From NCBI GenBank assembly GCA_964549685.1, contig CAZJVE010000009.1, positions 2,484 through 54,811 on the forward strand: 52,328 bases of DNA, in the 5' to 3' direction. Source of the DNA: an uncultured archaeon. GTDB lineage: Archaea > Altiarchaeota > Altiarchaeia > IMC4 > QMZM01. Made by a program: the position numbers and the translations under genes. Below are positions 17,158-45,203 of the stretch, in pieces. The stretch's first letter is position 1; the number at the start of each line of letters is the position of its first letter. Under the pieces are notes generated by a model, which was not told where the DNA came from, made no database searches, and saw only the letters and a list, made by a program, of their open reading frames with translations.

Positions 17158-18288
17158 ATGGTAGGCCTTACTAAAACGATACGAATACCGTTACATGAAC
17201 CTAACAAAGGGAAATATGATTCCCTCATCAACACCCTCAATCGCTATTCTGATTGCATCAACTTCCATCTTGATGGTGCTTTCTTTTACGCCGATTCCAA
17301 GCAGGAGTTGCATCAACTCTGCTACCGCTCCTCAAGATTGGACGGCCTGTCTGCCAACCTCGTCCAGTCGGCTCGTGACAGAGCAATTGAAATGCATCGG
17401 AGGGGATGCACCCATACTAGTGATGTCCCCCTCCGTCTGAACCAGCGAATCTTTAAGCTCGTTCTTCGCGATGATGGTCTTAATCTTATTGGTATCACAA
17501 CCATTAATGGTAGGATATATGTACCTCTACCGCCTTATCTTCGGCCTTACCAAAAGCGACACCTAAAGGACATAACTTCCGGGAAGGCAACCTGCAACTG
17601 TGCCGAACTTGTCGACAGAGATGGTGACTTATGGATCCATCTCTTCGTCAAATATGAACTTGACAAGCCTCACTATCAACCCAAAACCATTATCGGAGTC
17701 GACTTGGGAATATCCAAGATAGCAACGGCGTCCGCCCTATCTGAGGATGTGATGAGCAGACCAACCTTCTTTGATGGCTCCAGGTTGAGATTTAAGCGGA
17801 AGTGCTACAAGCGAAAGCTGAGCGAGTGGCAATCCAATGGAAATGATGCAATGGTCAAGAGGTCGAAAGGCAAAATATCAAACCTTTCAATCTATCTGAA
17901 CCACTGCATCAGCAAGGAGATTGTCTCCTTAGCGGAACAATATCCTAATCCAGTGATTGTCATGGAAAAGCTCACCCACATAAGGAAGCGAAACTTGGGC
18001 AAGCGAATGAACTACGAACTTAACTCTTGGTCTTTCGCCCAGCTCCAGAGCTTTATTGAATATAAGGCCATGGAAAAGGGCATTCGAATTGAATATGTCG
18101 GGGCCAAACATACCTCACACAGGTGCAGCAACTGTGGCCACCTCAACAAATCGAATCGTAAAGACCAAGCACATTTCAAGTGCTTGGAGTGCGGTTATGA
18201 AGCGAACGCCGACTTTAACGCTTCCGTTAATATAGCCAAAGTCTTCCGTGAGGGAGCGCCCTCTCAGCCTACATGGTTGGGTGGATAG
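17158..18288 (+). CDS. tnpB: TnpB RNA-guided nuclease, canonical D-E-D RuvC
   Basis: IGVDLGI, IVMEKL, WSFAQLQSFIEYKA, HTSHRCSNCG...FKCLECG, NADFNASVNIA. Confidence 0.95.
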   Translation: MVGLTKTIRIPLHEPNKGKYDSLINTLNRYSDCINFHLDGAFFYADSKQELHQLCYRSSRLDGLSANLVQSARDRAIEMHRRGCTHTSDVPLRLNQRIFKLVLRDDGLNLIGITTINGRIYVPLPPYLRPYQKRHLKDITSGKATCNCAELVDRDGDLWIHLFVKYELDKPHYQPKTIIGVDLGISKIATASALSEDVMSRPTFFDGSRLRFKRKCYKRKLSEWQSNGNDAMVKRSKGKISNLSIYLNHCISKEIVSLAEQYPNPVIVMEKLTHIRKRNLGKRMNYELNSWSFAQLQSFIEYKAMEKGIRIEYVGAKHTSHRCSNCGHLNKSNRKDQAHFKCLECGYEANADFNASVNIAKVFREGAPSQPTWLGG

Positions 18289-19934: not shown

Positions 19935-20046
19935 TTTCTAAGACCAAGGCATTTATTTCCAAAAGCAAGAGTATTTATATAAGTAATGCTATTATAAATA
20001 TATATTTATATATCTTAAATTAAATAAATATATAAATGATGATAAA
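19935..20046 (+). promoter_or_regulatory. Very AT-rich promoter region of the phn-like operon with 18-bp palindrome
   Basis: TATAAATATATATTTATA (19993-20010) is a perfect palindrome; several TATA-like boxes (TTTATATA, TATATAAA). Confidence 0.5.
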
Positions 20047-20961
20047 ATGAAAACAAAAATCTTGACGGGCTTGGCAATAATTGCCATGGTATTTTTGCTT
20101 GGCTGCACCAGCCAGCAGGAGCCAACAGGAGGGACAACTGGAGGAACAACGGGAGGAACAACGCCAGAGATAACGGTTTTGAAGATGGGACTTATCCCGG
20201 CGGATGACGCCGAGGAGATGGTCAGAAACTATCAGCCGGTAGCAGAGTATCTTGAGGGAAAGCTTGGCATTCCGATTGAGATTCAGGTTACATCCGACTA
20301 TACTGCCGCGATAGAGGCGATGAGGTCGAAGCACATAGACCTGGCGTGGTTCGGACCCTTTTCCTATGTACTTGCAGCACAGGAGGCGAACGCCGAGGCC
20401 ATCGTGAATGGAGTACGGAGGGACACCGGACTCTCGACATACAAGAGCGTAATCATTACAAGAGCTGATAGTGGCATAGAAACCCTGGATGATTTGAAGG
20501 GGCGCTCATTCGCCTTCGTAGACCCGGCATCGACATCAGGAAACCTGATACCCAGGAAGATGCTCATCGAGAACAACATAGACCCCGACAACGACTTCTC
20601 CACAATGTATTATGCAGGAACCCACAATGCTGTTGAGCTCGCAGTTGCAAATGGAAAAGTGGATGCCGGTGCAAATAGCGATACCACCTACTACCGGATG
20701 ATAGATGCAGGGGAGATAGATCCTGAGGTTAACATAATACTGCATGAATCCGAGCCGATTCCAGGGTCCCCAATAGTCGTCAGGGGAGATTTGCCCGAAG
20801 ACCTCAAGAGGAACATCCAGGATGCGTTGGTTAACATGGACGAACAGACCATACACAAGGTAGCCGGATGGGGCAATATTGCAAGTTATGTTGAAGTGGA
20901 AGACAGTGATTATGACGTTATCAGGGAGACCGCAAAGGTACTAGACATGGACCTGACCTAG
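20047..20961 (+). CDS. phnD: Phosphonate/phosphite/phosphate-ester ABC transporter substrate-binding lipoprotein
   Basis: Lipobox FLLGC, (GGTT)3 linker, DYTAAIEAM, GPFSY, DPASTSG, AGTH. Confidence 0.9.
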   Translation: MKTKILTGLAIIAMVFLLGCTSQQEPTGGTTGGTTGGTTPEITVLKMGLIPADDAEEMVRNYQPVAEYLEGKLGIPIEIQVTSDYTAAIEAMRSKHIDLAWFGPFSYVLAAQEANAEAIVNGVRRDTGLSTYKSVIITRADSGIETLDDLKGRSFAFVDPASTSGNLIPRKMLIENNIDPDNDFSTMYYAGTHNAVELAVANGKVDAGANSDTTYYRMIDAGEIDPEVNIILHESEPIPGSPIVVRGDLPEDLKRNIQDALVNMDEQTIHKVAGWGNIASYVEVEDSDYDVIRETAKVLDMDLT

Positions 20962-20963
20962 AG

Positions 20964-21689
20964 ATGAACGAGAGAATAGCAGTAATGGGCGACATCCACA
21001 GCAATTATCTTGCCTTGGATGCCGTTCTAAGGGACATAAAGGAAAAGGGGATTCGGGAGATATTTTGCCTTGGAGATTTGACAGGATACGCTCCCAATCC
21101 CGACAAGGTCTTTCCCATACTGAAGGGGATAAAGACCGTGATGGGCAACTATGAGGATGCAGTCGCATTCGAAAAGGAGGACTGCGGCTGCAACTACATA
21201 GACCCGGAGGCAATCCGGCTCTCGAAGATAAGCCTTGAATGGACCATCGAGCATACATCCAAAGAAAACAAGGAATGGATGAAGAATTTGCCAAAAGAGC
21301 TAAGGATGGAATTTGATGGAAGAAGGGTCGTTATAATTCATGGCCACCAGGGGAACATAGGCGAGAGGCTTCAGCCTAATTCCCCGGATGATTTGTTTCT
21401 CGAGACCCTGGACAAATACAATGCCGATATTCTTTTCTGCGCACATTCGCATATACCTTTCCATAAGGCGTTGGGCAGGAGGCATTTCATAAACCCAGGC
21501 TCCGTTGGGCGGCCCAGGACTGGCGACCCCAGGGCCTCCTATGCAATAGTCGACCTCGGGAAGGAGATAAAGACGGACTTCAGACTCGTCGAATATAATC
21601 ACGAGGAATTCGCCCGCGAGATAGAGAACTCAGACATGCCTGAAAACAACTTTGCTGATGTAATAAGAAAGGGCCACTGGAAGATGTAA
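20964..21689 (+). CDS. Calcineurin-like metallophosphoesterase (YfcE-like) with DCGC insert
   Basis: GDIHSN, LGDLTGY, GNYE, IHG, AHSH, NPGSVG. Confidence 0.9.
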   Translation: MNERIAVMGDIHSNYLALDAVLRDIKEKGIREIFCLGDLTGYAPNPDKVFPILKGIKTVMGNYEDAVAFEKEDCGCNYIDPEAIRLSKISLEWTIEHTSKENKEWMKNLPKELRMEFDGRRVVIIHGHQGNIGERLQPNSPDDLFLETLDKYNADILFCAHSHIPFHKALGRRHFINPGSVGRPRTGDPRASYAIVDLGKEIKTDFRLVEYNHEEFAREIENSDMPENNFADVIRKGHWKM

Positions 21690-21690
21690 G

Positions 21691-22464
21691 ATGATAGAGG
21701 TAAAAAATCTAACCCACCGGTACAAGACGAGGGAGGAGAAGGCAGTCCAGGACGTAAGCCTCAATGTAGATAAGGGAGAGATTCTCATAATCCTCGGCTC
21801 AAGCGGTGCTGGAAAGTCAACCCTTCTCAAGTGCATGAACAGGATTATAGAGCCGGATGCGGGAGAGATACACATAGAAGGCAGGGACATCCTCAGTGCC
21901 CCTGTTGCTGAGGCAGAAAAAATCAGGAGGAACATGGGTATGATATTCCAGCAGTTCAACCTGGTGGAGAGGAACACAGTTCTCGATAACGTCATAACCG
22001 GGAGGCTGGGCTATACCTCCACCCTCAAGAGCGCGCTCGGCCGTTTTTCCAGGGAGGATAGGAACATAGCCATGGACTGCATCGAGAGGGTCACTCTACA
22101 GGACTATGCCCACGAAAGAGTAAGCAACCTGAGCGGTGGGCAGAAGCAGAGGGTCGGAATCGCAAGGGCCCTGACACAGAAACCCAAGATAATCCTGGCT
22201 GATGAGCCTGTATCGGCATTAGACCCGAAGCTGATGAAGGAGATAATGGACCTGCTCCAGAGCATATGCACCGAGGACTGCATAACCTTGATAGTCAGCC
22301 TTCACTTCCTTGAGCTTGCGAAGAAATACGCCACAAGGCTCGTGGGAATGAAAGACGGCAGGATTGTCTTCGACGGCAAACCGGACGAGCTCAACGAGAA
22401 AAACATAATAGATATCTATGGCGAGAGCAGGGACTGGAGGCTCTACGGCAAGGTGGGATACTAA
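21691..22464 (+). CDS. phnC: Phosphonate ABC transporter ATP-binding protein
   Basis: GSSGAGKST, GMIFQQFNLV, LSGGQKQRVGIARAL, ILADEPVSALDP, SLH. Confidence 0.93.
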   Translation: MIEVKNLTHRYKTREEKAVQDVSLNVDKGEILIILGSSGAGKSTLLKCMNRIIEPDAGEIHIEGRDILSAPVAEAEKIRRNMGMIFQQFNLVERNTVLDNVITGRLGYTSTLKSALGRFSREDRNIAMDCIERVTLQDYAHERVSNLSGGQKQRVGIARALTQKPKIILADEPVSALDPKLMKEIMDLLQSICTEDCITLIVSLHFLELAKKYATRLVGMKDGRIVFDGKPDELNEKNIIDIYGESRDWRLYGKVGY

Positions 22465-22465
22465 G

Positions 22466-23266
22466 ATGAAAATAGGCAAGAGAGCAAAGCTAGGCAAGAG
22501 GGCAAAGCACGGCATTTTCCTTCTAGTCACGGTTCTGGTATACTGGTGGGCCATCCAGGGCACCAACACGAGTCCCGGGGAATTCATCGAGGGAATTCCC
22601 TTCATGGTCAAATTCACCCTGAGGATGTTCCCCCCAGACACGGAAATCCTCGGCCTTCTCATAGAGAGGATGGAGGAGACCCTGCAGATAGCTGTGATGG
22701 GCACAACCCTGGGGGCGCTGATTGCCTTCCCGCTTTCGTTCCTTGCCGCAAGGAACATAATGCCCAACAGGTTCGTATATCAGTCAGTAAGGTCAATCTT
22801 CGACATATGCAGGGGGATTAACGAGATAGTATGGGCCCTCATATTCGTCTCCATGGTCGGCCTCGGAGCCTTTCCGGGAGTCCTTGCACTTGCTGTTCAT
22901 CTCACCGGAGCGCTGGGTAGATACTTCTCAGAATCAATAGAGACCGTAAACCCGGAGACCGTAAAGGCGATAGTTGCAACAGGAGCGAACAAAATCCAGG
23001 TGATAATCTACGGCATAATCCCCGAGGTAAAGCCCCTATTTATAAACTATATCCTCTATTATTTTGAGCACAGCGTAAGGGCAGCCACCATCCTCGGTCT
23101 TGTAGGGGCTGGAGGTATAGGGATGGAATTGATAACGAGCATGAGGCTGTTCAAAACCCATGAAGTTCTGACAATCCTGATAATGATGGTTGCCATGGTT
23201 ATTTCCATTGACAGGATAAGCGCATACATAAGGAACAAAATCATCAAGGTGGAGATTGTTGAATGA
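22466..23266 (+). CDS. phnE: Phosphonate ABC transporter permease
   Basis: MFPPD, ETLQIA, FLAARN, VGLGAFPGVLAL, VRAATILGLVGAGGIG. ATG 22466 directly after the phnC stop. Confidence 0.93.
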   Translation: MKIGKRAKLGKRAKHGIFLLVTVLVYWWAIQGTNTSPGEFIEGIPFMVKFTLRMFPPDTEILGLLIERMEETLQIAVMGTTLGALIAFPLSFLAARNIMPNRFVYQSVRSIFDICRGINEIVWALIFVSMVGLGAFPGVLALAVHLTGALGRYFSESIETVNPETVKAIVATGANKIQVIIYGIIPEVKPLFINYILYYFEHSVRAATILGLVGAGGIGMELITSMRLFKTHEVLTILIMMVAMVISIDRISAYIRNKIIKVEIVE

Positions 23267-24039
23267 AAGCAATAATTATAGCAGCGGGGCCAGCAACAAG
23301 AATGAGGCCCTTGACCAAGGAATTGCCGAAGTGCATGCTGCCCATCAACGGAAAGCCGATAATACAGAACACCATCGAACTGTTCAGGGGGAACGGAATC
23401 GATGACATCTCCATTATCCGGGGCTACAAGAAGGAGAAGATAGAATTCCCTGACATAACCTATTTTGAAAATGAGGATTTCTGGAATAACAACATACTGC
23501 ACTCCCTCCTGTGCGCGAGGCCCAAGCTTGAGGAGGCAATGAAGACAGGAGAGGACGTCGTAGTAACCTACTCAGACATCTGGTACAACGACTCCGTTGT
23601 CAAGGCACTGCTTGAGTCCAAGGAGGACATCGCATCCATAGTCGATACTGACTGGGAGAGCTATTACGATGGCAGGACGGACCACCCAATCTCGGAGGCC
23701 GAGAACGTCATCATGGATGGCGATAACAGGATGGCGAAGATAGGCAAGCACATCTTCACCGACAAAACGCCAAAGGACAAGCAGGGGGAATTCATTGGGT
23801 TGTGGAAATTTACACCAAAGGGGATAAGGATATTCCTGAGGCATTTCGACAGACTGAACTCAAACCTGAAGAAGATTGACCCCTACCAGAATACAAAGGA
23901 ATGGCAGAAGTCCTATATCACCGACATGTTCCAGGAGATGATTGACACGGGTGAGAGGCTTTACTGCGTTCCGATACAAAAGAACTGGGCGGAGTTCGAC
24001 ACGGTCCAGGACTATGAAAAATTGCAGGAGGGCCTTTGA
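23263..24039 (+). CDS. Phosphocholine/phosphonate cytidylyltransferase family protein (LicC/PntC-like) 1
   Basis: KAIIIAAGPATRMRPLT..PKC, GYKKE, NNILHSL, YSDI, GEFIGL, WAEFDT. Confidence 0.85.
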   Translation: MKAIIIAAGPATRMRPLTKELPKCMLPINGKPIIQNTIELFRGNGIDDISIIRGYKKEKIEFPDITYFENEDFWNNNILHSLLCARPKLEEAMKTGEDVVVTYSDIWYNDSVVKALLESKEDIASIVDTDWESYYDGRTDHPISEAENVIMDGDNRMAKIGKHIFTDKTPKDKQGEFIGLWKFTPKGIRIFLRHFDRLNSNLKKIDPYQNTKEWQKSYITDMFQEMIDTGERLYCVPIQKNWAEFDTVQDYEKLQEGL

Positions 24040-24735
24040 ATGAAAGCCATAATCATAGCATCCGGCAGGGGAACCAGACTCTTGCCTTTAACGGAAAACA
24101 AGGCTCAGTGCCTCCTCGAGGTGGGCAATGAGACCATCCTCGAGCACCAGATAAAAATCCTTGAAGGCTCTGGAATCAAGGACATTTTTGTCATTACAGG
24201 CCACTGCGCGCAGCAGGTGGAGGAGAAATACAAAGGAAAAGCAGAGTTCATCTACAACCCCTTTTACAGGCATACCGGAATCGCGATGTCGCTCTGGTTC
24301 GCAAAGGAGAGAGCAAAGGACGACTTCGTATTCCTGTATTCGGACATCCTGTTCGACAGGAACATACTCAAGAATCTCCTGGCTACCAAGGGGGACATAT
24401 GCATCGCCGTTGACAGGAAAAAGGGCGGGGAGGAGGACGAGAAGGTGGTTCTCAAAGACGGGCTGGTCAGGGACATGGGCAAGGTCAACATAAAGCCGGA
24501 GGACTCCGACGGAATCTTCATAGGGCTTGCGAAATTCTCGAAAAAGGGCGCGGAAACCCTATTCGATGAAATTGACAGGGCCTCAAGAGAGAGGCTGGAC
24601 GCCTATCTTACCGACGCAATAGACAACCTAATCAAGGCCGGACAGAAGGTGAATTTCTCAGAGGCCAAAGGAAACTGGATAGACATAGACTTCGCCGAGG
24701 ACCTGGAAAGGGCGGGGGGCGTGGAATGGCACTGA
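24040..24735 (+). CDS. LicC/PntC-like cytidylyltransferase 2
   Basis: KAIIIASGRGTRLLPLT, YNPFY, YSDILF, EKV, FIGLAKFS, WIDIDFAEDL. Confidence 0.85.
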   Translation: MKAIIIASGRGTRLLPLTENKAQCLLEVGNETILEHQIKILEGSGIKDIFVITGHCAQQVEEKYKGKAEFIYNPFYRHTGIAMSLWFAKERAKDDFVFLYSDILFDRNILKNLLATKGDICIAVDRKKGGEEDEKVVLKDGLVRDMGKVNIKPEDSDGIFIGLAKFSKKGAETLFDEIDRASRERLDAYLTDAIDNLIKAGQKVNFSEAKGNWIDIDFAEDLERAGGVEWH

Positions 24736-25622
24736 CCCAGAGGAACATAGAGGTCGATACAGAGGTATGGAATTCCCTGAAATCTGAGGCAATGAGCAGC
24801 AACAAGAACGTCCGCGAATTTGCGGGGGAGATTCTTGCGGACCATGTCAATGGCAAAGGGAAGAGAGAAAGGACCGGAATCAGGGCGATAATCCTTGCGG
24901 CAGGCCCTGGAACCCGGCTGAGGCCATTAACGGACGACAAGCCGAAGTGCATGCTGGAGATAAACGGAAAGACCCTCATCGAGAGGCAGATAGAGGTCTT
25001 CAGGAACTGCGGCATAGACGACATAACCGTCGTAAAGGGCTACAAGAAGAACATGATAAACTATCCCGGCATCAAATACTACATCAACAGGAATTACAAG
25101 AACAACAACATCCTCGAATCCCTGATGCATGCTGAGAAGGAGATGGACTCGGAATTCATAGCATCCTATTCAGACATCCTGTATGATGAAGGCATCATAA
25201 AGAAGCTGATGAAGAGCGGGGGCGACGTCTCCATAGTCACGGACACGGACTGGACCTCCCATTACAAAGACAGATACCAGCATCCAATAGAAGAGGCCGA
25301 GAAGGTAGCGGTCAAGGATGGAAAGGTCACAAGGATAACCAAGATTATAAACCCCAACGAAGCATATGGGGAATTCATTGGCCTTATAAAATTTTCAAAT
25401 AAGGGAGCAGAAATTCTGAAGAAGGAATTCAGCAGGGTAAGGAAGGAATTCCGAGCAAAGCCGTTCCAGACGGCGGCCTCCATAGAGAAAGCCTATCTGA
25501 CAGACATGATTCAGGAGCTCATAGACCGGGGCCACAGGGTCGAGAGTGTCGACATACAGGGCAAATGGCTTGAGATAGACACGCTGGAGGACTACGAGCG
25601 CGCGAAGAAACTGATAAGGTAG
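24726..25622 (+). CDS. LicC/PntC-like cytidylyltransferase 3 with N-terminal ribbon-helix-helix-like extension
   Basis: Catalytic domain starts at RAIILAAGPGTRLRPLT after ~50 aa (RNIEVDTEVWNSLKSEA...VREFAGEIL). Confidence 0.85.
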   Translation: MALTQRNIEVDTEVWNSLKSEAMSSNKNVREFAGEILADHVNGKGKRERTGIRAIILAAGPGTRLRPLTDDKPKCMLEINGKTLIERQIEVFRNCGIDDITVVKGYKKNMINYPGIKYYINRNYKNNNILESLMHAEKEMDSEFIASYSDILYDEGIIKKLMKSGGDVSIVTDTDWTSHYKDRYQHPIEEAEKVAVKDGKVTRITKIINPNEAYGEFIGLIKFSNKGAEILKKEFSRVRKEFRAKPFQTAASIEKAYLTDMIQELIDRGHRVESVDIQGKWLEIDTLEDYERAKKLIR

Positions 25623-25625
25623 ACG

Positions 25626-26495
25626 ATGGAGTCCTACGCAGTCTTACTGGTCCTTACCTCCGCCTTTCTGCACTCGATATGGAACTTCCTGCTGAAGGAT
25701 AGCGGGAACAAGCTTGCATTTGTTTACATACTTAACATTCTCATTGGTATAATATTTCTCCCCGTAGTCTTGCTATCCCTAGGTTCCATCTCCCTGTCTG
25801 AGACTGGAATCCTCTTCGCAATTCTCAGCGGACTGATTCATGCCATCTACTTCATCCTTTTGTCGAAGGCATACTCCCACGGCCACCTCTCCATCGTCTA
25901 CCCCCTGGCAAGGTCCTCGCTCCTTTTCGTTCCAGTCTGGGCCTTCTTCCTCCTGGGAGAGAAACTATCGCTTGAGGGAATTCTCGGCATCCTTCTCATA
26001 ATCCTGGGAATCTACATCCTCCATCTCAGGAGGCTGTCTGTGGATTCCCTGGCCGAGCCCTTCCGGTACATCAGGGAAAAGGGCTCCTTCTTCGCCATCC
26101 TGACTGCGCTGAGCATATCCTTCTACTCCGTGGTTGACAAGGTCGGCGTGGCATTCCTTAACCCAGTGCCATACATCTACATCATGTTCTTCTTCATAAT
26201 GGTGTTCATGACACCCTACGTTCTCCCGGGACACAGGGATAAAATACAGAGCGAGTGGGATAGCAACAAGAAAAGGATACTCGCAAGCTCAGTCCTCTGC
26301 GTAACGAGCTACCTCATGATTCTATTCGCCTTCCAGCTCAGCAAGGTCAGCTACATAATCTCCCTGAGGCAGATAAGCGTTATCATCGGCGTTCTTCTCG
26401 GGACCACGCTCCTGAAAGAGAAATACGGCAGAATAAGGCTCGTTGCTTCGGCCGTAATGTTCATAGGCTTCTTCCTAGTCAGCATAGCAAACTAG
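25626..26495 (+). CDS. EamA/DMT family transporter
   Basis: LHSIWN, AYSHGHLSIVYPLARS, LGEKLS, YSVVDK, LRQISV, LLKE; 10 TM. Confidence 0.9.
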   Translation: MESYAVLLVLTSAFLHSIWNFLLKDSGNKLAFVYILNILIGIIFLPVVLLSLGSISLSETGILFAILSGLIHAIYFILLSKAYSHGHLSIVYPLARSSLLFVPVWAFFLLGEKLSLEGILGILLIILGIYILHLRRLSVDSLAEPFRYIREKGSFFAILTALSISFYSVVDKVGVAFLNPVPYIYIMFFFIMVFMTPYVLPGHRDKIQSEWDSNKKRILASSVLCVTSYLMILFAFQLSKVSYIISLRQISVIIGVLLGTTLLKEKYGRIRLVASAVMFIGFFLVSIAN

Positions 26496-26555: not shown

Positions 26556-26765
26556 TCAGTCCAGATACCCAAGCGCCTTCAGCCTCTCCCTTACCTTTTC
26601 CTCGTCCTCATCGGAGGCCTTTTCCTCCTTTCCTTCAGAAACAACCTCCTTCAGAACATAGGTGACGTAATCGGAAAGCGACTCGAATTCGGTGCCCTTC
26701 ATCCTCTCTTCAATCTTCCCGGCTATGGATTTCGGAATCTCCACGTCCACGGTTTCTTCTGCCAT
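26556..26765 (-). CDS. Small CopG/ribbon-helix-helix protein with C-terminal EEKVRERLKALGYLD tail
   Basis: VEIPKSIAGKI...FESLSDYVTYVLKE RHH pattern; acidic linker and LKALGYL tail. Confidence 0.8.
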   Translation of the reverse strand: MAEETVDVEIPKSIAGKIEERMKGTEFESLSDYVTYVLKEVVSEGKEEKASDEDEEKVRERLKALGYLD

Positions 26766-26901: not shown

Positions 26902-28296
26902 ATGGCAAAAGTATTTGTCCTTGGTATCGACGGCGCGCCGCCGCAATTTGTCTTCGATAAATGGATAGACGAGCTGCCCAATCTGAAGAAGCTGATGGAC
27001 AACGGCGCCTTTGGCAGGATTAAGAGCACCATCCCGCCATCCACCTGCATCGCATGGAATTCCTTTTTTTCAGGGAGGGACGCCTCGGATTTCGGGGTAT
27101 ACAGCTATACCAAGAGGGACGACTTTTCCTATTCCCCGAGCCAGCTAATCAGCTCCCATGACATAAAAGCGGACATGGTCTGGGAAGTCCTGACCGAAGC
27201 CGGGAAGAAGAGCTACGTTATCGGCGTGCCCATAACCTATCCCGTAAGGAAGGCGATAAACGGGGCGATGGTAACGGGTTTTATGACCCCCGAGTTCAAT
27301 GACAAGAGCGTTCATCCTTCCGAATTCAGGGAAGAGATAAAATCCCTGCTCGGTAAGGACTACATGTTCGACGTCAGTGTCGGATTAGCATCATACAAAA
27401 AAATAGACTTGGACGTCCTTCTCGAGAAGGTCTATGAAATGACGAGGCAGCAGTTCATGGTACTCAGGCACCTCATAGAAAGGAAGGACTGGGACTTCGC
27501 GGCCCTGGTATTAATCGGCTCCGACCGGCTCCAGCATACCCTTTGGGCGCACATCGACGAGACCCACAGGAATTATAAGGACTCGGAGCACAGGGACTCC
27601 CTGAAGGACTACTTCATATACATCGACAGGGAGCTGGGGAAGATTATCGAAATGTTGGATGATGATACGACCATCATTGTCTCATCAGACCACGGGATGG
27701 ACAAGATGAATTTCAGGTTCAACCTGAACGACTGGCTGATAAAGGAAGGTTACTTAGTGCTGAAGGAAAAGGTAGACGGCCCTGTGAGGTTCAGCCCCGA
27801 CCTAATCGACTGGAAAAAAACCAGGGCCTATTCGTCTGGGGCCTACTTCGCAAGGATTCAGATAAACCTCAAGGGACGGGAGCCGGAGGGGATTGTGGCT
27901 GCCGAAGATTACGACTCCATCCAGCAGGAATTAGCACAAAAATTCATGAAGATAAAGGGTGACCAGAACCAGGAGATGGACAACAAGGTCTATCTGACCA
28001 AGGACATCTACCACGGAAAATATGCAAAATACGCCCCGGACATGATTGTCTACCTCGACAACCTCCTGACTGGAACTAGTGCAGATGTTGGCAACCCCTT
28101 GCTGTATTCGACCGAAACACAAGTCGGCAAGGACGACGCGGGCCATGCCCCAGTCGGCATGTTCGTCATCAGCGGCGGAAACGCCCCCAAGTCATGCAAT
28201 CTGGGCACCGTGGACATCTATGACGTTGCCCCTACCATTTTTTCAATACTGAATGTAGATATTCCTAATACCCTGCGCGGAAAGAAGATACTATGA
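26902..28296 (+). CDS. Alkaline phosphatase superfamily protein (type I phosphodiesterase/NPP-like)
   Basis: VLGIDGA, STIPPSTCIAW (Thr nucleophile), DRLQH, SSDHG, INLKGREPEG, AGHAPVG, YDVAPT. Start ATG 26902 preferred. Confidence 0.88.
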   Translation: MAKVFVLGIDGAPPQFVFDKWIDELPNLKKLMDNGAFGRIKSTIPPSTCIAWNSFFSGRDASDFGVYSYTKRDDFSYSPSQLISSHDIKADMVWEVLTEAGKKSYVIGVPITYPVRKAINGAMVTGFMTPEFNDKSVHPSEFREEIKSLLGKDYMFDVSVGLASYKKIDLDVLLEKVYEMTRQQFMVLRHLIERKDWDFAALVLIGSDRLQHTLWAHIDETHRNYKDSEHRDSLKDYFIYIDRELGKIIEMLDDDTTIIVSSDHGMDKMNFRFNLNDWLIKEGYLVLKEKVDGPVRFSPDLIDWKKTRAYSSGAYFARIQINLKGREPEGIVAAEDYDSIQQELAQKFMKIKGDQNQEMDNKVYLTKDIYHGKYAKYAPDMIVYLDNLLTGTSADVGNPLLYSTETQVGKDDAGHAPVGMFVISGGNAPKSCNLGTVDIYDVAPTIFSILNVDIPNTLRGKKIL

Positions 28297-30542
28297 AAGA
28301 GGTCAAGATAATCGTTACCCTGGGCCCGGCAACAGACTCGGAAGAAATGATAAAGAGGATAAGGGAATCCAGGGTCGACTTTGTAAGGCTGAACATGTCC
28401 CATTCATCCCTTGAGGATTTGAAGAGGGTTCTGAAGACTACAGAGAAACTGGGCGCGCCCTTCATCCTTGACACCGAGGGGCCCCAGATAAGGACGGGCG
28501 GGTTAAAGAAGAGCGTCATTGTCCTTGACGAAAACGACGAAATCAAGATTCATGAAAAGGAAACCGAGGGCGACGAGAAGAACATCTGTCTCAGGCCCAG
28601 CTCCGTTGTATCGTTTCTGCACGAGGGGGATTTGATAGCCGTTGACTTCGACACCCTGCTGTTAAGGGTTTCGGATGTCTCGACGCTGAAAGACGAGGGC
28701 TACGTAAAGGCCAGGGTCATAACCGGGGGCGTATTAGGGAGGGCCAAGTCCGCGGTCATCGACCAGCCGGTCCAGTCTCTGTCGAGACTTCCTATTCTAT
28801 CAGAAAAAGATTTAGGTGCCCTAGAAATAGCCCTCAAGCACGGCGTCGGGCACATAGCGGCCTCGTTTGTCAGAAACGGCGACGACATCGACGAGGTAAG
28901 AAAACTGACACAGGACAGGATGGAGGTCATCTCCAAGATAGAAACCAAGGAGGCCATGAACCATCTCGATTCCATAATCCAGAAGTCGGACTACGTCCTC
29001 ATCGACAGGGGGGACCTGGGCAAGGAGATATCCCTTGAGAAGGTACCCCTGACACAGAAGATAATACTCAACAAGGCAAAGCAACTGGAAACACCGGCCT
29101 TCATTGCAACCAACCTGCTGGAGTCGATGATAGAGAAACCAAAACCCACCAGGGCGGAACTAAACGACATCATGAATTCATTGCTTGATGGTGCATCCGG
29201 GCTCGTGCTCTGCGCGGAAACCGCAATAGGAAAATACCCCCTCGAGTGCATCGGCATACTGCACAGGATGATAAACCAGGCCGACTTGGCTATCGATTAT
29301 GAAACAGAGGATACCTCCACGAACGACATTGCCAAACGGCTTGAGGAACTGGGTTACATCCAGAGCGGTTTCATCGGGGGCTCGCTGATTGAACCCCACG
29401 GCGGAAGGCTGGTCGACAGGATATTGAAAAAACCGATTGACAAGAAATACCTGGCCAAGCTCCCGGGAATTGAAATAGATACGAACAAGCAGATGGACGT
29501 TGAGCAGATAGCCATAGGCACCTTCAGTCCTTTGGAGGGGTTCATGTGCGAGGCCGATTTTAATTCAGTCCTGGATAACATGCGCCTGGCAAGCGGGGTT
29601 GTCTGGACAATCCCGATTGTTTTCGACGTTACGAAGAAACAGGCAAAGGACATCAACCCAGGGCAGAGCGTAACCCTTATCGGCGACGACGGCCCCATGG
29701 CCCTGCTCCACGTTGAGGAAAAATACGCCTACGACAAGACCGAGACGGTGAAAAAATGGTACGGCACCGATGATAAGTCACACCCCGGAGTGGCGGCGGT
29801 GCACGCCATGGGCGACGTGCTCCTCGGCGGAAAAATTGATTTAATCAAGAGAAGGAAATCAGAGTTCAAGGAATACGAGCTCACGCCCGCCCAGGTAAGG
29901 AAGATATTTGAAGAACGTGGCTGGAGCAGGGTAGTTGGCTTCCATACGCGCAACGTAATCCACGGAGGTCATGAATTCATCCAGCTCGATGCACTTGACA
30001 AAACCTCCTGTGATGGATTATTCGTGCATCCAATCATCGGCAAGAAAAAGAAGGGGGACTTCAGCACAAAATTTATCGTGAAGGCATACGAAAAGATGAT
30101 GGAATTATTCTATCCGAAGAACAAGGTAGTCTTTACCCTCTTCTCTACTTTTTCGAGATATGCGGGCCCCAGGGAGGCCATCTTTACGGCAATATGCCGG
30201 AAGAACTTCGGGTGCAGTCATTTTATCACCGGGAGAGACCATACAGGGGTTGGCGAATTCTATCATCCCCACGCATCCCACCAGATATTCGACAAGTTTC
30301 CGAACCTGGGCATAAAGCCCGTCAAGTACGATACGGTATACTACTCAGAGACTCATAAGAAATATCTTCATGAGCCCGATGCATCCGACCATCCGGAGGA
30401 CAAGAAGCTCCACATCTCAGGCACGGAGACAAGAAAAATGCTGAAGGAGGGAAAGATGCCCCCCGAATGGGTCATGCGCCCGGAGATTGCAAGAGTAATC
30501 ATCGATGCCATAAAGAATAAAGAAGAGGTGTTCGTAGAATGA
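28293..30542 (+). CDS. Pyruvate kinase-like domain fused to sulfate adenylyltransferase (ATP sulfurylase)
   Basis: N-half: KIIVTLGPA, RLNMSH, LDTEGPQIRTG, SKIET, DRGDLG, ATNLLESM, PTRAE, AETAIGKYP. C-half: PHGGRLV, FSPLEGFM, HPGV, HTRNVIHGGHE, RYAGPREA, GRDHTGVG, ISGT, MRPEI. Confidence 0.92.
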   Translation: MKEVKIIVTLGPATDSEEMIKRIRESRVDFVRLNMSHSSLEDLKRVLKTTEKLGAPFILDTEGPQIRTGGLKKSVIVLDENDEIKIHEKETEGDEKNICLRPSSVVSFLHEGDLIAVDFDTLLLRVSDVSTLKDEGYVKARVITGGVLGRAKSAVIDQPVQSLSRLPILSEKDLGALEIALKHGVGHIAASFVRNGDDIDEVRKLTQDRMEVISKIETKEAMNHLDSIIQKSDYVLIDRGDLGKEISLEKVPLTQKIILNKAKQLETPAFIATNLLESMIEKPKPTRAELNDIMNSLLDGASGLVLCAETAIGKYPLECIGILHRMINQADLAIDYETEDTSTNDIAKRLEELGYIQSGFIGGSLIEPHGGRLVDRILKKPIDKKYLAKLPGIEIDTNKQMDVEQIAIGTFSPLEGFMCEADFNSVLDNMRLASGVVWTIPIVFDVTKKQAKDINPGQSVTLIGDDGPMALLHVEEKYAYDKTETVKKWYGTDDKSHPGVAAVHAMGDVLLGGKIDLIKRRKSEFKEYELTPAQVRKIFEERGWSRVVGFHTRNVIHGGHEFIQLDALDKTSCDGLFVHPIIGKKKKGDFSTKFIVKAYEKMMELFYPKNKVVFTLFSTFSRYAGPREAIFTAICRKNFGCSHFITGRDHTGVGEFYHPHASHQIFDKFPNLGIKPVKYDTVYYSETHKKYLHEPDASDHPEDKKLHISGTETRKMLKEGKMPPEWVMRPEIARVIIDAIKNKEEVFVE

Positions 30543-31141
30543 TAGAATGTAAAAACGGCAAACCGCTAATCATTGCCTGCGGCCTGTCCGGCTCCGGCAA
30601 GACCTTTAATTCATTGCACCTGGAAAAAAACCTGAAGGACTATGTCAGGCTGAACCCCGAGATTGTCCGGGAGGAGATGAATATAACCACGTACTCAAGG
30701 AAGGACACGCCCGGGATTCTTGCGCACATCATCGACAGGATTGAGGAGCTGCACAACGGGAACAAGGGCGCCATCGTGGACGCCAATCTCAAGTCCAATG
30801 ATTTACGGCAATCCTTCTATGACCTGGCAAAGCACCTCAATGAAGATGTAATCGTTATCGAGTTTACCTGCCCGACGGAAGAGTGCAAGAAGAGAATGAC
30901 CGAGAGAACGCCGCTGGACGGAAAGATACACCACCCCGTCGATCCAAAGATATTCGATACCCAGAAAAAAACCTGGCAGGACATCGCCCCGGACCTGGAG
31001 CTGAAGGGCAACGACCACGTTCTGTTGATAAGGTACGATTCATCCTCCTGCAGGGCGGAGGTAGTCAGAACCAACGACAGGCACAACGAATTCATAAATG
31101 AAATCATCTCGCTTCTTGAACAGAAAGAGACCGATATCTGA
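30539..31141 (+). CDS. P-loop small-molecule kinase (AAA_33 / APS-kinase-like fold)
   Basis: CGLSGSGKT Walker A, IVDAN, CPTEECKKR lid motif. Confidence 0.75.
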   Translation: MIECKNGKPLIIACGLSGSGKTFNSLHLEKNLKDYVRLNPEIVREEMNITTYSRKDTPGILAHIIDRIEELHNGNKGAIVDANLKSNDLRQSFYDLAKHLNEDVIVIEFTCPTEECKKRMTERTPLDGKIHHPVDPKIFDTQKKTWQDIAPDLELKGNDHVLLIRYDSSSCRAEVVRTNDRHNEFINEIISLLEQKETDI

Positions 31142-31143
31142 AA

Positions 31144-34134: not shown

Positions 34135-35673
34135 ATGGAGCAGGAAATCATTACCTTTTTAGAAAAGCTGGACGAGGACAAGAGCGAAAACGGCATCAAC
34201 GCCATTAAGTATAACGGATGGCCCGTGTGGTGGTTCTTCAAGCAGCGATTCCTGAGAGACCGGTTGCTCCCTCCCCTGTCGACGCACAAGGAAATCATGG
34301 ATTCGGTCAAGAACAAAAGGAAGCCCGCCGGCAGACTGACCTCGCTGAGGATGAGGAAATTCATCTCGTACAACGAGAGGTGCAAGTTCCTCATGTCGCG
34401 ATTTAACAGGATACCTGAAAAGACCCCGGACGAGAAGATAATGTTCATCGTGCATACCAATGGCGTAGTGCCCGACAAGGAATACGGGTTTACCGTCGAC
34501 AGGTCCGGGAGCGTGGTCAATGAGATAAGAAGGGACCCCAAGATGAAGGAATACGTGGCAGTGGTGAAACCAATGTCGCATAAACCATCTCTAGACCTCT
34601 TCAGCTGGAACAGGGGGCACCTGGTCTACCCGTTTGTCGATGCCGAAATCAGGAGGAAGGCAAGTAAAGAATCCAAACGGCTGCATGCGGAGTGCTCGAA
34701 TTTCCTGGAACGACACCCCACCTCGCCCATCTGGGAGCAGCTTCAGCCGGCGTTCAGGGTTTTCTTCTCAAGGGAGATTCTGTACCTCCTTGTACTCTAC
34801 TATGAGCTATACAAGAAAATCATCCGGCACGGGAACATACGCCTCGTCTGCTTCTACAGCATCGGCTTCCTTGGAAACTGCGCGATGGCCGCGGCTCACG
34901 ATTCCAAAATCAAGTCCCTCTTCATATACCATGCGCTGGGGATCGAGGTGGTAAGGCACGACTATCCGCCCAGCGTTTATATTGCACTGCTCAGCAAGAT
35001 GCACAAGGAGTTCGAGGTAGGTTCAAGCAACGTGGACCCCGAAAAGATATTCATAACCGGCCCGGTTTTCATGGACGACATCGTCCCCCACATCGACAGG
35101 AAAACAAACAACAGCCCCAGGAAAATACTGCTGTTCTCCGACCCCTGGGACGTAAGCCAGCTGGGGAGCGTCATCGGCGACAAGTCGGTCTATGAGAGGT
35201 ACCTATCTAAATTCATAAAGGAAGTAAATAAAATCAGTGATGTAGAGATAATCCTGAAGATACACCCCCGCGACAACGTCGATTTTTATAAACCATTTAC
35301 CAATACCAGTAATGTTCGTATTGCGACCGGGCAGTCGAAGGAGGAACTCTATACCCTGATGAGCGAGTGCGATATAGCCTTTGGATTTAACTCCTCCGCC
35401 AACGGTGAAGCAATGGTCATGCGCAAGCCCTCCGTGATAATAAACCTGATGCCCGAACTGACCGACCCCATCCTGGATGATTCGCGGGCCCAACATCTCG
35501 CCCCGAATGACGACGTATCCGAGCTCGTTGGAAAGCTGCTGGACGATAAGAAATTCCGGGCGGCCGTCATAGACAACCAGGACAAGATAATCTCCGATTA
35601 CCTCTACAAGATAGACGGCAAGGCAAAGAACAGAGTGAAGGACATAATCTCCGATTTACTGAAATCAAAATGA
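34135..35673 (+). CDS. GT-B surface-polysaccharide protein, possible sialyl/nonulosonyl or glycerophosphotransferase
   Basis: C-terminal ITGP, KIHPRD, FNSSANGEAM, IDGKAKNRV motifs typical of CDP-glycerol transferase/capsule biosynthesis-like proteins. Confidence 0.55.
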   Translation: MEQEIITFLEKLDEDKSENGINAIKYNGWPVWWFFKQRFLRDRLLPPLSTHKEIMDSVKNKRKPAGRLTSLRMRKFISYNERCKFLMSRFNRIPEKTPDEKIMFIVHTNGVVPDKEYGFTVDRSGSVVNEIRRDPKMKEYVAVVKPMSHKPSLDLFSWNRGHLVYPFVDAEIRRKASKESKRLHAECSNFLERHPTSPIWEQLQPAFRVFFSREILYLLVLYYELYKKIIRHGNIRLVCFYSIGFLGNCAMAAAHDSKIKSLFIYHALGIEVVRHDYPPSVYIALLSKMHKEFEVGSSNVDPEKIFITGPVFMDDIVPHIDRKTNNSPRKILLFSDPWDVSQLGSVIGDKSVYERYLSKFIKEVNKISDVEIILKIHPRDNVDFYKPFTNTSNVRIATGQSKEELYTLMSECDIAFGFNSSANGEAMVMRKPSVIINLMPELTDPILDDSRAQHLAPNDDVSELVGKLLDDKKFRAAVIDNQDKIISDYLYKIDGKAKNRVKDIISDLLKSK

Positions 35674-42191: not shown

Positions 42192-42879
42192 TCTGAATCA
42201 GGAATTCTGCGAACCTGAGGTCCAAGTCGGTATCTATGTCAACGGACCTCTCCGGGGGCATTACCACGCCGCCCATGTTGTCGGACAGTATCCTGGATTC
42301 CTTCATTATAAGGTCCCTGCTCATGACATAAACTGCCCCGTTTGACCGGTAGAGTTCAGGTAAATCCTGACTTCTTACCGCCTTGTTGGCCCCCTTGACA
42401 AAGGGCTCAAGTTTCCCGTCCCTGAGCTCGTACATCCAGTGCGGCGGGCACTGTGCCCTGCTCACGGTCAATACCGGGTCGTAGTCAGAGTCTAGGAATT
42501 TCTCAACCGCCTTGTCTATGTCCTCCCTCTTCCTGAGGGGAGAGGTCGGCTGGAGCAGGACCACCAGCTCCGGGTGATAATCCTCGTTCTCTTCAAGATA
42601 CTGTATAGCATGCTGAATAACCGGAAGGGACGGCGTCTCGTCCTTCGATAGTTCAGCCGGCCTCATGAATGGCACCTCGGCCCCGTGCTCCCTGGAGACC
42701 CCGGCTATCTCCTCATCATCGGTTGAAACCACCAGCCTGTCAATATGCTCTGACCTCAGGGCCTCCTCTATGGTATGGGCAATCAGCGGCTTTCCAGCCA
42801 GTGCTTTGACGTTCTTTCCGGGCAGTCTCCTGGAGCCGCCCCTTGCTGTGATGATTGCAAGAACCTTCCTTTTAGGCAT
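42178..42879 (-). CDS. neuA: CMP-nonulosonic acid synthetase (acylneuraminate cytidylyltransferase)
   Basis: ARGGSRRLPGKN, VSTD, RPAEL, LQPTSPLR, NGAVY, SVDIDT. Confidence 0.95.
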   Translation of the reverse strand: MPKRKVLAIITARGGSRRLPGKNVKALAGKPLIAHTIEEALRSEHIDRLVVSTDDEEIAGVSREHGAEVPFMRPAELSKDETPSLPVIQHAIQYLEENEDYHPELVVLLQPTSPLRKREDIDKAVEKFLDSDYDPVLTVSRAQCPPHWMYELRDGKLEPFVKGANKAVRSQDLPELYRSNGAVYVMSRDLIMKESRILSDNMGGVVMPPERSVDIDTDLDLRFAEFLIQNEEH

Positions 42880-44033: not shown

Positions 44034-45203
44034 ATGAACGTTTACATGTTCTGTCTGGACGCCCTCGGCACGAATCCTTTGAAGACCCCGGACGCGTGCC
44101 CGCAGCTGACGGACTACATAGACAACAGCGACCTGCTGTACAAGAACACCATCGCGCCGTGCCCGTTCACGGACTGCTCCATCGTGAGCATGTTCACCGG
44201 ACTCTACGGAACGCTGCACAGGGCCGACAGCTGGGGGATGGTGGAGAAGACGTTCAAAAGAGATGAGGTGGTAACCCTGCCCCAGATACTCACCAACCTC
44301 GGATACAAGAGCTTCTACATCGGATATGACTGCCTGACCACCGAGGCGAGCTTTTTTGACGATACCCATCTGATGGACCTTGTCCAGAACATGAAGAGGG
44401 TCGGGCAGCACACGGTCGGTTTTTCCGATGCCGAGTACAGGAAAAAGCACAACAAGAAATACGCCGAGCTCGTGAACAAGACGGAAGGAGACAAAATTGT
44501 TTTCGTCCATGACATGAATTATCACGATGTTAACAGATGCCTTGGTATCGATGTTCCATTATTCTCGTGGTGCGACGAAACAAACGCAGAATACGAGCGG
44601 TGCATGAGGTTCATGGACGACCAGCTGCCCATCAAATACTACGACATAGATTTCGACGAGGACATAGTCATCATATTCCCGGACCACGGCGGCAAGACCT
44701 GGGACGAAATCTACCTGGACGAGAGGTTCGTCAAGACGTTCTGGGCAATCTATGCGCCCAATGCCAAGAAGAGAGTCACAGAGAAGTTCTACAGCTTTGT
44801 GGACTTCCTCTCCATCTTCCTCGAGCTGCTGGGTATAACTGATACTGACATCTGCCAGGGCAAGAGAGATGGGGGAGAGTATTGCGTGTCCTTCGGCGGG
44901 ATAGGCAACCCGAAGTTCAGCAAGTGGGCATCCCCTGACAAGCCGAACCAGTTCATGATAACGGACGGCGACCGGTACTACTACCGCCACGACAAGATCG
45001 GGGAGATAGTAACAGATGAATGGGACTTCTCGGACGTCGGCAAGGTGGAATCAGATGAAAAGCTGATAGAGTTCTACAAGAACAAGATGGATGAGATTCT
45101 GTATCCTGATAAAAAGATACAGGATTTCTATTCACCTGAATTACTTACTAAATTTGGATTGGACGAGAAGCAGGTACTTGCCCTGTCCGGGGAAAAGAAA
45201 TAG
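44034..45203 (+). CDS. Sulfatase-like/alkaline phosphatase superfamily protein lacking the CxPxR motif
   Basis: CLDAL, APCPFTDCSIVSMFTGLY, TLPQIL, PDHG. Confidence 0.7.
   Translation: MNVYMFCLDALGTNPLKTPDACPQLTDYIDNSDLLYKNTIAPCPFTDCSIVSMFTGLYGTLHRADSWGMVEKTFKRDEVVTLPQILTNLGYKSFYIGYDCLTTEASFFDDTHLMDLVQNMKRVGQHTVGFSDAEYRKKHNKKYAELVNKTEGDKIVFVHDMNYHDVNRCLGIDVPLFSWCDETNAEYERCMRFMDDQLPIKYYDIDFDEDIVIIFPDHGGKTWDEIYLDERFVKTFWAIYAPNAKKRVTEKFYSFVDFLSIFLELLGITDTDICQGKRDGGEYCVSFGGIGNPKFSKWASPDKPNQFMITDGDRYYYRHDKIGEIVTDEWDFSDVGKVESDEKLIEFYKNKMDEILYPDKKIQDFYSPELLTKFGLDEKQVLALSGEKK

Follow-up and report, generated by a model that had tools for sequence, protein, structure and literature searches.

An operon of phosphonate-importer and nucleotidyltransferase genes

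The window analysed here is a 52,328-nucleotide (nt) stretch of contig CAZJVE010000009.1 (positions 2,484 to 54,811; assembly GCA_964549685.1) from an uncultured archaeon of the Altiarchaeota, whose 85%-complete genome amounts to 1.17 Mb over 27 contigs. Proteins clustering at 90% identity with the product of a neighbouring gene carry the names Candidatus Altiarchaeota or Altiarchaeales; matches of the serine hydroxymethyltransferase were mostly bacterial and gave no information on the taxon. Eight co-oriented, tightly packed open reading frames (ORFs) at 20047-26495 encode, in order, PhnD, a metallophosphoesterase, PhnC, PhnE, three LicC/PntC-like nucleotidyltransferases (NTP_transferase/NTP_transf_3 proteins, named NT1, NT2 and NT3) and EamA. 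An initial annotation of the window had described eight co-oriented genes with gaps of 0-3 bp or overlaps, and had placed their products in these families. The ORF coordinates were confirmed, and the family assignments agreed with Pfam, NCBIfam and the solved relatives. The operon and its borders are laid out as follows.

19935..20046, + strand: probable archaeal promoter region, 112 nt, AT-rich, with several TATA-like stretches upstream of phnD (judged by sequence inspection)
20047..20961, + strand: phnD, PhnD-family substrate-binding lipoprotein (TIGR03431, 288.8 bits, cut-off 261)
20964..21689, + strand: cytoplasmic calcineurin-like metallophosphoesterase of the YfcE/MJ0936 type (Metallophos_2, PF12850, 92.9 bits)
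21691..22464, + strand: phnC, ATPase of a transporter of the ATP-binding cassette (ABC) type (TIGR02315, 325.8 bits, cut-off 266)
22418..23266, + strand: phnE, permease (TIGR01097, 289.6 bits, cut-off 217); likely true start ATG at 22466
23263..24039, + strand: NT1, LicC/PntC-like nucleotidyltransferase (LicC 1jyk, E 8.8e-15)
24040..24735, + strand: NT2, LicC/PntC-like nucleotidyltransferase (LicC 1jyk, E 4.6e-17, full length)
24726..25622, + strand: NT3, LicC/PntC-like nucleotidyltransferase (LicC 1jyk, E 9e-18)
25626..26495, + strand: eamA, membrane transporter of the EamA/drug-metabolite transporter (DMT) type (PF00892, 86.6 bits)
26556..26765, - strand: acidic ORF of 69 amino acids (aa), convergent to eamA and bounding the operon at its 3' end (Pfam matches all sub-threshold)

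Genes within the operon are separated by gaps of 2, 1, 0 and 3 nt or overlap by 4 and 10 nt. The reading frames of phnC and phnE overlap by 47 nt; with the second methionine of PhnE (nt 22466) taken as the start, the two genes are instead 1 nt apart. PhnC, PhnD and PhnE each exceeded the NCBIfam equivalog cut-offs for a phosphonate ABC transporter. The N-terminus of PhnD has a signal peptide, an LLGC lipobox-like motif and a Thr/Gly linker. EamA came nearest to the NCBIfam model for a 'phosphonate utilization associated membrane protein' (TIGR03340), at 157.9 bits where the cut-off is 288. As initially annotated, the operon lies within a glycan locus: the surroundings form a surface-glycan island that encodes a flippase, GT1, GT2 and GT4 glycosyltransferases, PMT_2, nonulosonic-acid enzymes and a module for sulfation. 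The related cassettes of other genomes lie among surface-glycan genes of like kinds.

Searches for phosphonate biosynthesis and catabolism genes

The whole host genome was searched with hidden Markov models (HMMs) for phosphoenolpyruvate (PEP) mutase, PhnJ, choline kinase, phosphonatase (PhnX), PhnW and PhnZ-type HD proteins. PEP mutase and choline kinase (LicA; PF01633) gave no match; PhnJ (C-P lyase), PhnX and a PhnZ-type HD protein were not found, and the best PhnW score was 27.9 bits against a cut-off of 400.8. The genome was also queried by tblastn with proteins of the related loci described below, including PEP-mutase fusions, phosphonopyruvate decarboxylase (Ppd), iron-dependent alcohol dehydrogenase (Fe-ADH), a cupin resembling methylphosphonate synthase (MpnS) and a radical S-adenosylmethionine (SAM) protein. 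No PEP mutase (Ppm), Ppd, Fe-ADH, MpnS-like or radical SAM counterpart was detected in the host genome by these queries, which matched the NT domains and EamA. By these searches, the genome holds the activation half of such a pathway together with an importer, and neither a source nor a sink for the C-P bond. Further weak matches were obtained with sulfatase, methyltransferase and PF01467::PEP-mutase fusion queries, and to a 512-aa protein considered below. C-P lyase, phnWX, pepM and a LicA-type kinase had been reported as missing from the window; their absence now extends to the 85%-complete genome, in which the search for pepM/ppd, phnJ and phnX proposed at that time found none.

Transferase orthologues in phosphonate biosynthesis clusters

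LicC (1jyk) was the best solved relative of NT1, NT2 and NT3, and the PntC fusion 6pd1 was also matched. A structure model of NT3, built on a 28-sequence alignment, had a predicted local distance difference test (pLDDT) score of 91.8. Its top Foldseek matches were LicC 1jyk and PntC-AEPT 6pd2 (both E 1.1e-17), with inositol-phosphate cytidylyltransferases next. NT1 is a highly conserved stand-alone type that occurs in importer cassettes and in PEP-mutase/MpnS clusters; there were 2359 relatives at E<=1e-10, and the best 120 of these 2359 were 68-94% identical. NT2 is the type placed after phnE in relatives, and NT3 is the type fused to PEP mutase. NT3 shares 48% identity with the NT domain that forms part of the NT::Ppm fusion at the related locus L012, and is the host genome's closest copy of that domain. 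A quick maximum-likelihood tree was made from 51 NT sequences, leaving out high-scoring segment pairs of <150 residues and three duplicate contigs. Branch support is given as the Shimodaira-Hasegawa approximate likelihood-ratio test (SH-aLRT). NT1 formed a clade of 20 rows (SH-aLRT 100) and NT2 a clade of 19 rows (SH-aLRT 91), the members of the NT2 clade coming solely from phnE-carrying loci. NT3-like and PEP-mutase-fused domains formed an unresolved grade.

Searching species genomes with NT1 gave 14 loci, whose titles name Woesearchaeota, Nanoarchaeota, an 'archaeon' or Methanosarcinales, the last probably a mislabelling. In 9/14 loci phnD, phnC or phnE lay beside the NT genes, arranged as NT1-PhnD-(methyltransferase)-PhnC-PhnE-NT2, which is not the order of the window. 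Pfam was run on 82 of the 176 ORFs from 11 of these loci, skipping genes that tblastn had already matched and ORFs distant from the cassette. It revealed genes of phosphonate biosynthesis around the NT1 orthologues, namely PEP mutase, Ppd, Fe-ADH and a methylphosphonate-synthase homologue. The order at L012 is PhnC, PhnE, NT2, NT::PEP-mutase, cupin, radical SAM, Ppd (a thiamine pyrophosphate enzyme), EamA, Fe-ADH and NT1. Its PEP mutase scored 356 bits with TIGR02320 (cut-off 320) and its decarboxylase 500.6 bits with TIGR03297 (cut-off 312; both NCBIfam models). NT/PEP-mutase fusions and Fe-ADH are present at both L014 and L015, with the decarboxylase at L015, and L007 has a PF01467::PEP-mutase fusion plus a cupin. 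PEP mutase was thus beside or fused to NT orthologues at L007, L012, L014, L015 and L108. The EDKx5NS motif, given in a preprint as the recognition mark of authentic PEP mutases, was present in all four of the relatives' enzymes tested.

The cupin of L007 matched methylphosphonate synthase (6b9s, 204.7 bits) better than 2-hydroxyethylphosphonate dioxygenase (HEPD; 6b9r, 124.4 bits). Two positions reportedly separate MpnS from HEPD, and the L007 cupin has Phe and Ile at what we take to be these positions. A neighbourhood of this type has been described for MpnS genes (PMC9381506). The presence of biosynthesis clusters around the orthologues therefore places the transferase family in phosphonate tailoring, with clusters of the methylphosphonate/2-hydroxyethylphosphonate type.

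Methylphosphonate-synthase homologues were seen in Ppm-type clusters of metagenome-assembled genomes (MAGs) of the Woesearchaeota type (L007:10899-12134, L012:3826-5046 and L108:12438-13616). Judged from these genes, ultra-small archaea may be methylphosphonate producers.

NT3 carries an N-terminal extension of ~50 residues (window 24726-24880), in which the model has helices at 12-24 and 29-41. The extension is kept in the L004 orthologue (L004:5722-5860), and on sequence comparison is a conserved domain common to the two. Pfam gave no significant match to it. By eye, the model looks like a ribbon-helix-helix DNA-binding module, a label based on two predicted helices and inspection because nothing in Pfam was significant; the PEP-mutase type of transferase may double as a DNA-binding regulator. 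We considered whether the extension could be what is left of the linker in a Ppm::NT fusion, and rejected this, the alignment to the L015 fusion being too weak in this region. An NT paralogue at L113 has instead an N-terminal stretch with a C2H2-zinc-finger-like motif (L113:5874-6150).

Linkage of the importer to the transferases

A reciprocal search with PhnD yielded 58 loci, on which the window genes and the relatives' biosynthesis genes were mapped by tblastn (E<=1e-8). Nineteen loci, four of them on contigs already sampled, formed a close group with PhnD 63-79% identical in full-length alignments. A nucleotidyltransferase was present within 7 kb of phnD in all 19 (LicC-like in 17, PF01467-type alone at L107 and L114), and 13/15 loci that include the stretch after phnE had an NT2-type gene no more than 1 kb downstream of it. 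In contrast, no such nucleotidyltransferase was found at any of the 39 distant loci (PhnD 23-49% identical), which are bacterial and mostly have the order PhnD-PhnC-PhnE-PhnE. The initial annotation had named, as a finding that would count against it, phn genes that usually occur without the transferases in relatives. Linkage in 19/19 close and 0/39 distant loci does not bear out this objection.

The genomes behind the loci were searched for PEP mutase and PhnD, a PEP mutase being counted as strong at >=150 bits. The outcome by group was as follows.

Cassette genomes, first set (eight with a PhnD match plus G059, in which phnD is cut by the contig start): n=9; PEP mutase strong in 3, none in 6
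Cassette genomes added by the PhnD search: n=15; strong in 5, none in 10
Host genome: n=1; strong in 0, none in 1
All cassette genomes: n=25; strong in 8, none in 17
NT1 genomes without PhnD: n=5; strong in 5, none in 0

There was no genome with neither a PhnD cassette nor a PEP mutase. For the first set plus the host the comparison is 3/7 versus 5/0 (one-sided Fisher p 0.019), a value treated as descriptive because the relatives are not independent and MAG completeness is not given. Across these genomes, the importer and PEP mutase largely complement each other.

On these comparisons, we consider it reasonably probable that the operon encodes an importer-fed version of Pnt/Lic-type phosphonyl tailoring, by which a ready-made phosphonate would be imported, activated and displayed, not fed on. 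That the genes serve to import and activate a compound for decoration, and not for phosphorus supply, had been proposed in the initial annotation. Comparative genomics supports that proposal through the biosynthesis clusters, the linkage, the complementarity and the failure to find catabolic genes in the host genome. Also in its favour are the head-group residues kept in PhnD, the LicC and PntC-AEPT folds nearest to the NT3 model, the surface-glycan island, and the presence of the operon in sequencing runs from four studies labelled marine or seawater metagenome.

The occurrence of PEP mutase in 8/25 cassette genomes, where at L005, L012 and L108 its gene shares a contig with the phn genes, raises another explanation. 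The cassette could be a device with which producers recapture or exchange shed surface phosphonate, present in this host as the leftover of a decayed biosynthesis cluster and of little function. A split licD-like gene and TnpB genes flanking the region, both described below, would fit decay. Against it, 17/25 cassette genomes have no PEP mutase, the eight operon genes are intact and tightly coupled, the pocket residues of PhnD are invariant, and the identity of NT1 to distant relatives reaches 81%. We regard this explanation as very unlikely.

The binding pocket of PhnD

The nearest solved relatives of PhnD are phosphite binders (PtxB 5o2j, 167.7 bits; 5jvb, 165 bits), and Escherichia coli PhnD scored 96.2 bits. 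Residues that bind the phosphonate head group are kept: Tyr85, the Tyr of STYKS, Ser-Thr-Ser 162-164 and His193. Phosphite specificity of PtxB is attributed to a capping Tyr208 and its partner Asp22 (Te_PtxB Y208, D22; PMC5700983). These two residues align with Ser241 and Ala52, so that the phosphite-type cap is missing. The pair Glu177/Asp205, which in E. coli PhnD holds the amine of 2-aminoethylphosphonate, aligns with Thr213/Ser241 and is missing too; an amine ligand is still possible, since the invariant Asp212 adjoins this position. Ala52, Asp53, Asp54, Asp212 and Ser241 were identical in 26/26 rows of close relatives (three of them duplicate contigs), and in the same 26/26 rows the PtxB-type Tyr/Asp was replaced alike.

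With Ser241 where the capping Tyr would be, PhnD is therefore not a PtxB-type phosphite binder, and the differences in the tail pocket indicate a pocket larger than that for phosphite and of uncharacterised specificity. Naming a ligand from the pocket residues was tried and rejected; Ser241 is common to distant bacterial PhnDs and marks only 'not phosphite type'.

A phosphoester is another candidate for the imported compound. The cassette would then import and activate a head group such as phosphocholine, phosphoethanolamine or glycerol phosphate, in a kinase-free Lic/Kennedy-type route. In its favour, NT1, NT2 and NT3 all have the phosphocholine enzyme LicC as their best solved relative. With no choline kinase found in the host genome, such a route would need a pre-phosphorylated substrate. 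The PhnD family does include a binder of glycerol-1/3-phosphate, GpxB, which has Arg/Thr in place of the E. coli PhnD pair (PMC12718374). Furthermore, a CDP-alcohol phosphatidyltransferase gene lies beside the cassette at L008, and the L008 protein has tblastn matches at L105 and L110. Against this, relatives have their genes of the NT1 and NT3 types set among PEP-mutase/Ppd/MpnS-type genes or fused to them, and complementarity of importer and PEP mutase fits a shared phosphonate substrate. The Arg/Thr tail pair of GpxB is also not evident here, the aligned positions being Thr213 and Ser241. Import of a phosphoester therefore seems improbable. Either phosphonates or phosphoesters had been envisaged initially; the evidence favours a phosphonate without proving it.

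Proposed importer-fed phosphonyl tailoring and how it compares with known systems

If importer-fed tailoring is correct, PhnDCE would import a small, preformed phosphonate out of seawater, most likely methylphosphonate or 2-hydroxyethylphosphonate, because the relatives' clusters are built to make these. At least one of NT1-3 would join the phosphonate to cytidine monophosphate (CMP), using cytidine triphosphate (CTP), and a transferase of the surrounding glycan locus would move the phosphonyl group to a surface glycan or glycoprotein. The metallophosphoesterase would probably trim an imported ester or hydrolyse wrongly made or surplus nucleotide conjugates, and EamA would move the free or activated compound across the membrane.

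Several observations weigh against this proposal. The tail pocket of PhnD (A52, T213 and S241, with invariant D53, D54 and D212 nearby) matches no solved specificity, and Ser241 is also found in most distant bacterial PhnDs that lack linked transferases. Similarity to LicC is strong only across the nucleotide-binding half in NT1 and NT3. Eight cassette genomes also carry PEP mutase, so import does not simply replace synthesis, and some of the 'no PEP mutase' calls may be assembly gaps since the completeness of the relatives' MAGs is not given. The only LicD-type gene of the host genome is split. None of the sequencing runs that hold the operon is RNA.

Phosphate transport genes also bear on the proposal. 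PstS and PHO4/Pit were not found in the host genome, while PstS is present in 17/21 genomes of its family, and among cassette relatives PstS occurs in 3/24 and PHO4 in 2/24. PhnDCE could thus also, or instead, serve phosphorus supply. Mainly it would then import phosphate, or nutrient phosphonate or phosphite, and the transferases would serve the glycan locus independently. The Phn system of Mycobacterium smegmatis transports phosphate. PhnCDE is called a phosphonate/phosphate transporter in the E. coli K-12 record. A phosphorus importer would not, however, predict transferase linkage in 19/19 close versus 0/39 distant loci, nor the presence of the same transferases in PEP-mutase clusters, and no C-P cleaving enzyme that could free phosphorus from a phosphonate was found in the host genome. 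Relatives without PhnD are equally poor in phosphate transporters (PstS 0/5, PHO4 1/5), and the scarcity is therefore not tied to the importer. Phosphorus supply as the main role is accordingly judged unlikely. Across all of the relatives' genomes (DPANN), PstS and PHO4 were each found in 3/29.

Importer-fed tailoring resembles the Pnt pathway, in which, according to Rice et al. (2019; PMC6697681), LicC-like transferases activate a phosphonate as its CMP conjugate for glycans or lipids. The Pnt clusters likewise hold several copies of PntC, one type of which is a fusion with PEP mutase (also PMC8942020). The present system differs in its archaeal host and in having a PhnDCE importer in the place of PEP mutase, phosphonopyruvate decarboxylase and transaminase, none of which was found in the host genome. 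Unlike that of the Pnt pathway, its substrate is likely not 2-aminoethylphosphonate, because the relatives' clusters are of the Fe-ADH/MpnS type.

The Lic pathway (LicA-D) of Streptococcus pneumoniae and Haemophilus influenzae shares the sequence of head-group import, CTP activation and transfer to a glycan, and includes a DMT transporter and a LicD-type gene. Here, however, no LicA kinase was found in the host genome, licD is split, and EamA has no match to solved LicB. In addition, and unlike in the Lic pathway, import would rely on an ABC system whose binding protein is PhnD, so the substrate would already carry phosphorus. The system can thus be viewed, from its gene content, as Lic-like logic with Pnt enzymes, in which an ABC importer would replace both the kinase and the PEP-mutase branch.

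Clusters of MpnS genes in Nitrosopumilus maritimus and other marine organisms (PMC9381506) resemble those of the relatives, with Ppm, Ppd, Fe-ADH and an MpnS homologue beside LicC-like transferases and arylsulfatase-like genes. The host differs in having the activation part and an importer, with Ppm, Ppd, Fe-ADH and MpnS not found in its genome. As in the PhnCDE of the E. coli C-P lyase system and in PtxABC, all three transporter subunits exceed NCBIfam cut-offs and head-group residues are kept. In contrast to those systems there is no link to C-P lyase here, nor had the initial annotation seen a ptxD in the window, and there is one PhnE gene, not two. PhnD itself differs from PtxB (no Tyr cap) and from E. 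coli PhnD (no Glu177/Asp205), and its close subfamily is always transferase-linked. No description of phosphonate tailoring fed by a PhnCDE importer was found in the literature searched, which lay mostly outside subscription journals.

Were importer-fed tailoring confirmed, the division of phosphonate surveys into producers (pepM) and consumers (C-P lyase, PhnWX, PhnYZ) would gain a third class, displayers of phosphonates made elsewhere, and surveys based on pepM would have to be read differently. It would also revise the fates known for dissolved methylphosphonate and 2-hydroxyethylphosphonate, and ideas on how genome-reduced archaea assemble protective or host-mimicking surfaces from scavenged parts. 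The binding protein and the three transferases form a defined set for testing, and the PhnD family gains an unexplored class of specificity.

The phosphoesterase, EamA and candidate attachment enzymes

The phosphoesterase gene is inserted between phnD and phnC, where L008, L010, L103 and L109 have a methyltransferase and other relatives have nothing. Its best solved relative is 3rqz (E 4.5e-19); the solved relatives are uncharacterised or nucleotide-hydrolase-like, and the usual metal-binding motifs are visible in the sequence. The best relatives are 29-31% identical in species genomes and 32-37% identical over most of the protein within the order, and in the absence of close relatives there is no informative synteny. 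PF12850 proteins have been reported in archaeal ppm/ppd neighbourhoods (PMC8942020), and HIT or CwfJ-type genes lie near NT1 in relatives instead of the phosphoesterase. The enzyme would presumably hydrolyse a phosphonate ester or a conjugate of the CMP-phosphonate/CDP-alcohol type. An orthologue of EamA, 41% identical, lies inside the L012 biosynthesis cluster. Among solved structures EamA matched no LicB chain at E<=1, and NIPA2 and EmrE were weak matches.

Three features of the window are candidates for attaching the activated group.

49845-50171 and 50174-50536, + strand: licD-like phosphotransferase gene in two ORFs, in different frames, split at an A5 run
44034..45203, + strand: protein of the sulfatase/alkaline-phosphatase superfamily (PF00884, 37.5 bits)
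34135..35673, + strand: 512-aa GT-B-like 'surface carbohydrate biosynthesis' protein (NF046086, 53.8 bits; TIGR04396, 37.6 bits; both under cut-off)

A licD-like gene had been placed at 49845 in the initial annotation. A LicD-like frame does start there (LicD, PF04991, 46 bits on the first ORF, of 108 aa), but the gene is split into two ORFs, the second with a weak match to Mf1 cholinephosphotransferase. The split sequence recurs, identical and gap-free, in a contig from another run (X4), one that carries no flag as a possible source. The gene could be a pseudogene, a split gene or a case of programmed frameshifting, and is thus a candidate attaching enzyme that is possibly inactive. The protein at 44034-45203 has 32% identity over 109 residues to the sulfatase of the L005 cluster; sulfatase genes occur at L005, L007 and L014, and L153 matches the L005 sulfatase. 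It is an alternative candidate because such genes recur in the relatives' phosphonate clusters. The 512-aa protein is a further candidate: its homologue at L008 (520 aa; tblastn E 4e-23) lies two genes past an NT2-type gene, after a CDP-alcohol transferase gene. CDP-alcohol phosphatidyltransferase genes lie next to NT2 in some relatives, such as L008, and a lipid acceptor is therefore possible in those relatives. A homologue of this enzyme was not found in the host genome by tblastn.

Distribution and origin of the cassette

Among 49 species genomes of its order, the host is the only one with an orthologue of NT1, three others having matches at 35-45% identity. It is likewise the only one of the 49 with a true PhnD, every other match scoring <=42 bits. 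A PEP-mutase-like gene occurs in 1/49. The nearest relatives of the cassette are in MAGs of Woesearchaeota, Pacearchaeota and Nanoarchaeota; for NT1, identity to genes in MAGs of the Woesearchaeota and Nanoarchaeota reaches 81%. GC content is unremarkable. On the simplest reading, the cassette was probably acquired laterally, because only one of the 49 genomes of the order has it and because of the identity of NT1 to the Woesearchaeota and Nanoarchaeota genes.

More tentatively, this Altiarchaeota lineage and ultra-small archaea might share, by lateral transfer, a self-contained module for import, activation and attachment, with which cells without PEP mutase coat themselves with the methylphosphonate or 2-hydroxyethylphosphonate of others. 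If so, the module would be a concealed sink outside catabolism and a means of cross-feeding for the marine methane precursor, and pepM-based surveys would undercount phosphonate-displaying organisms. We regard this as possible rather than probable.

Cassette loci with PhnD 69-74% identical were also seen on MAG contigs titled Nealsonbacteria, Chloroflexi and Anaerolineales (L112, L113 and L116); these represent either transfer into bacteria or binning errors. Two TnpB-like genes with a Cas12f1-like TNB domain lie upstream of the operon (window 11046-12407 and 17158-18288) and are consistent with a mobile or variable glycan island.

Other genes of the glycan island

At 28293-32013 of the window, a 749-aa fusion of pyruvate-kinase barrel, PUA domain and ATP sulfurylase is followed by an AAA_33 kinase gene and by a gene resembling PHP-family 3',5'-nucleoside bisphosphate phosphatases (NF041577, 163 bits, under cut-off). 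The trio looks like a module for making and recycling 3'-phosphoadenosine-5'-phosphosulfate for glycan sulfation. A homologue of the ATP-sulfurylase fusion, 46% identical, directly adjoins phnD at L105 (L105:4500-6752).

The island contains two B12-binding radical SAM enzymes (window 37322-38761 and 50533-51972), and like genes lie near the cassette at L008 and L009. Fom3, the fosfomycin methyltransferase, belongs to the same radical SAM class and acts on a cytidylylated phosphonate. At 38924-42879, a WbuX-type N-acetyl sugar amidotransferase gene (TIGR03573, 359.9 bits) stands beside genes for NeuB, a CMP-sugar synthetase (CTP_transf_3) and UDP-GlcNAc 2-epimerase, which together make up a nonulosonic-acid pathway.

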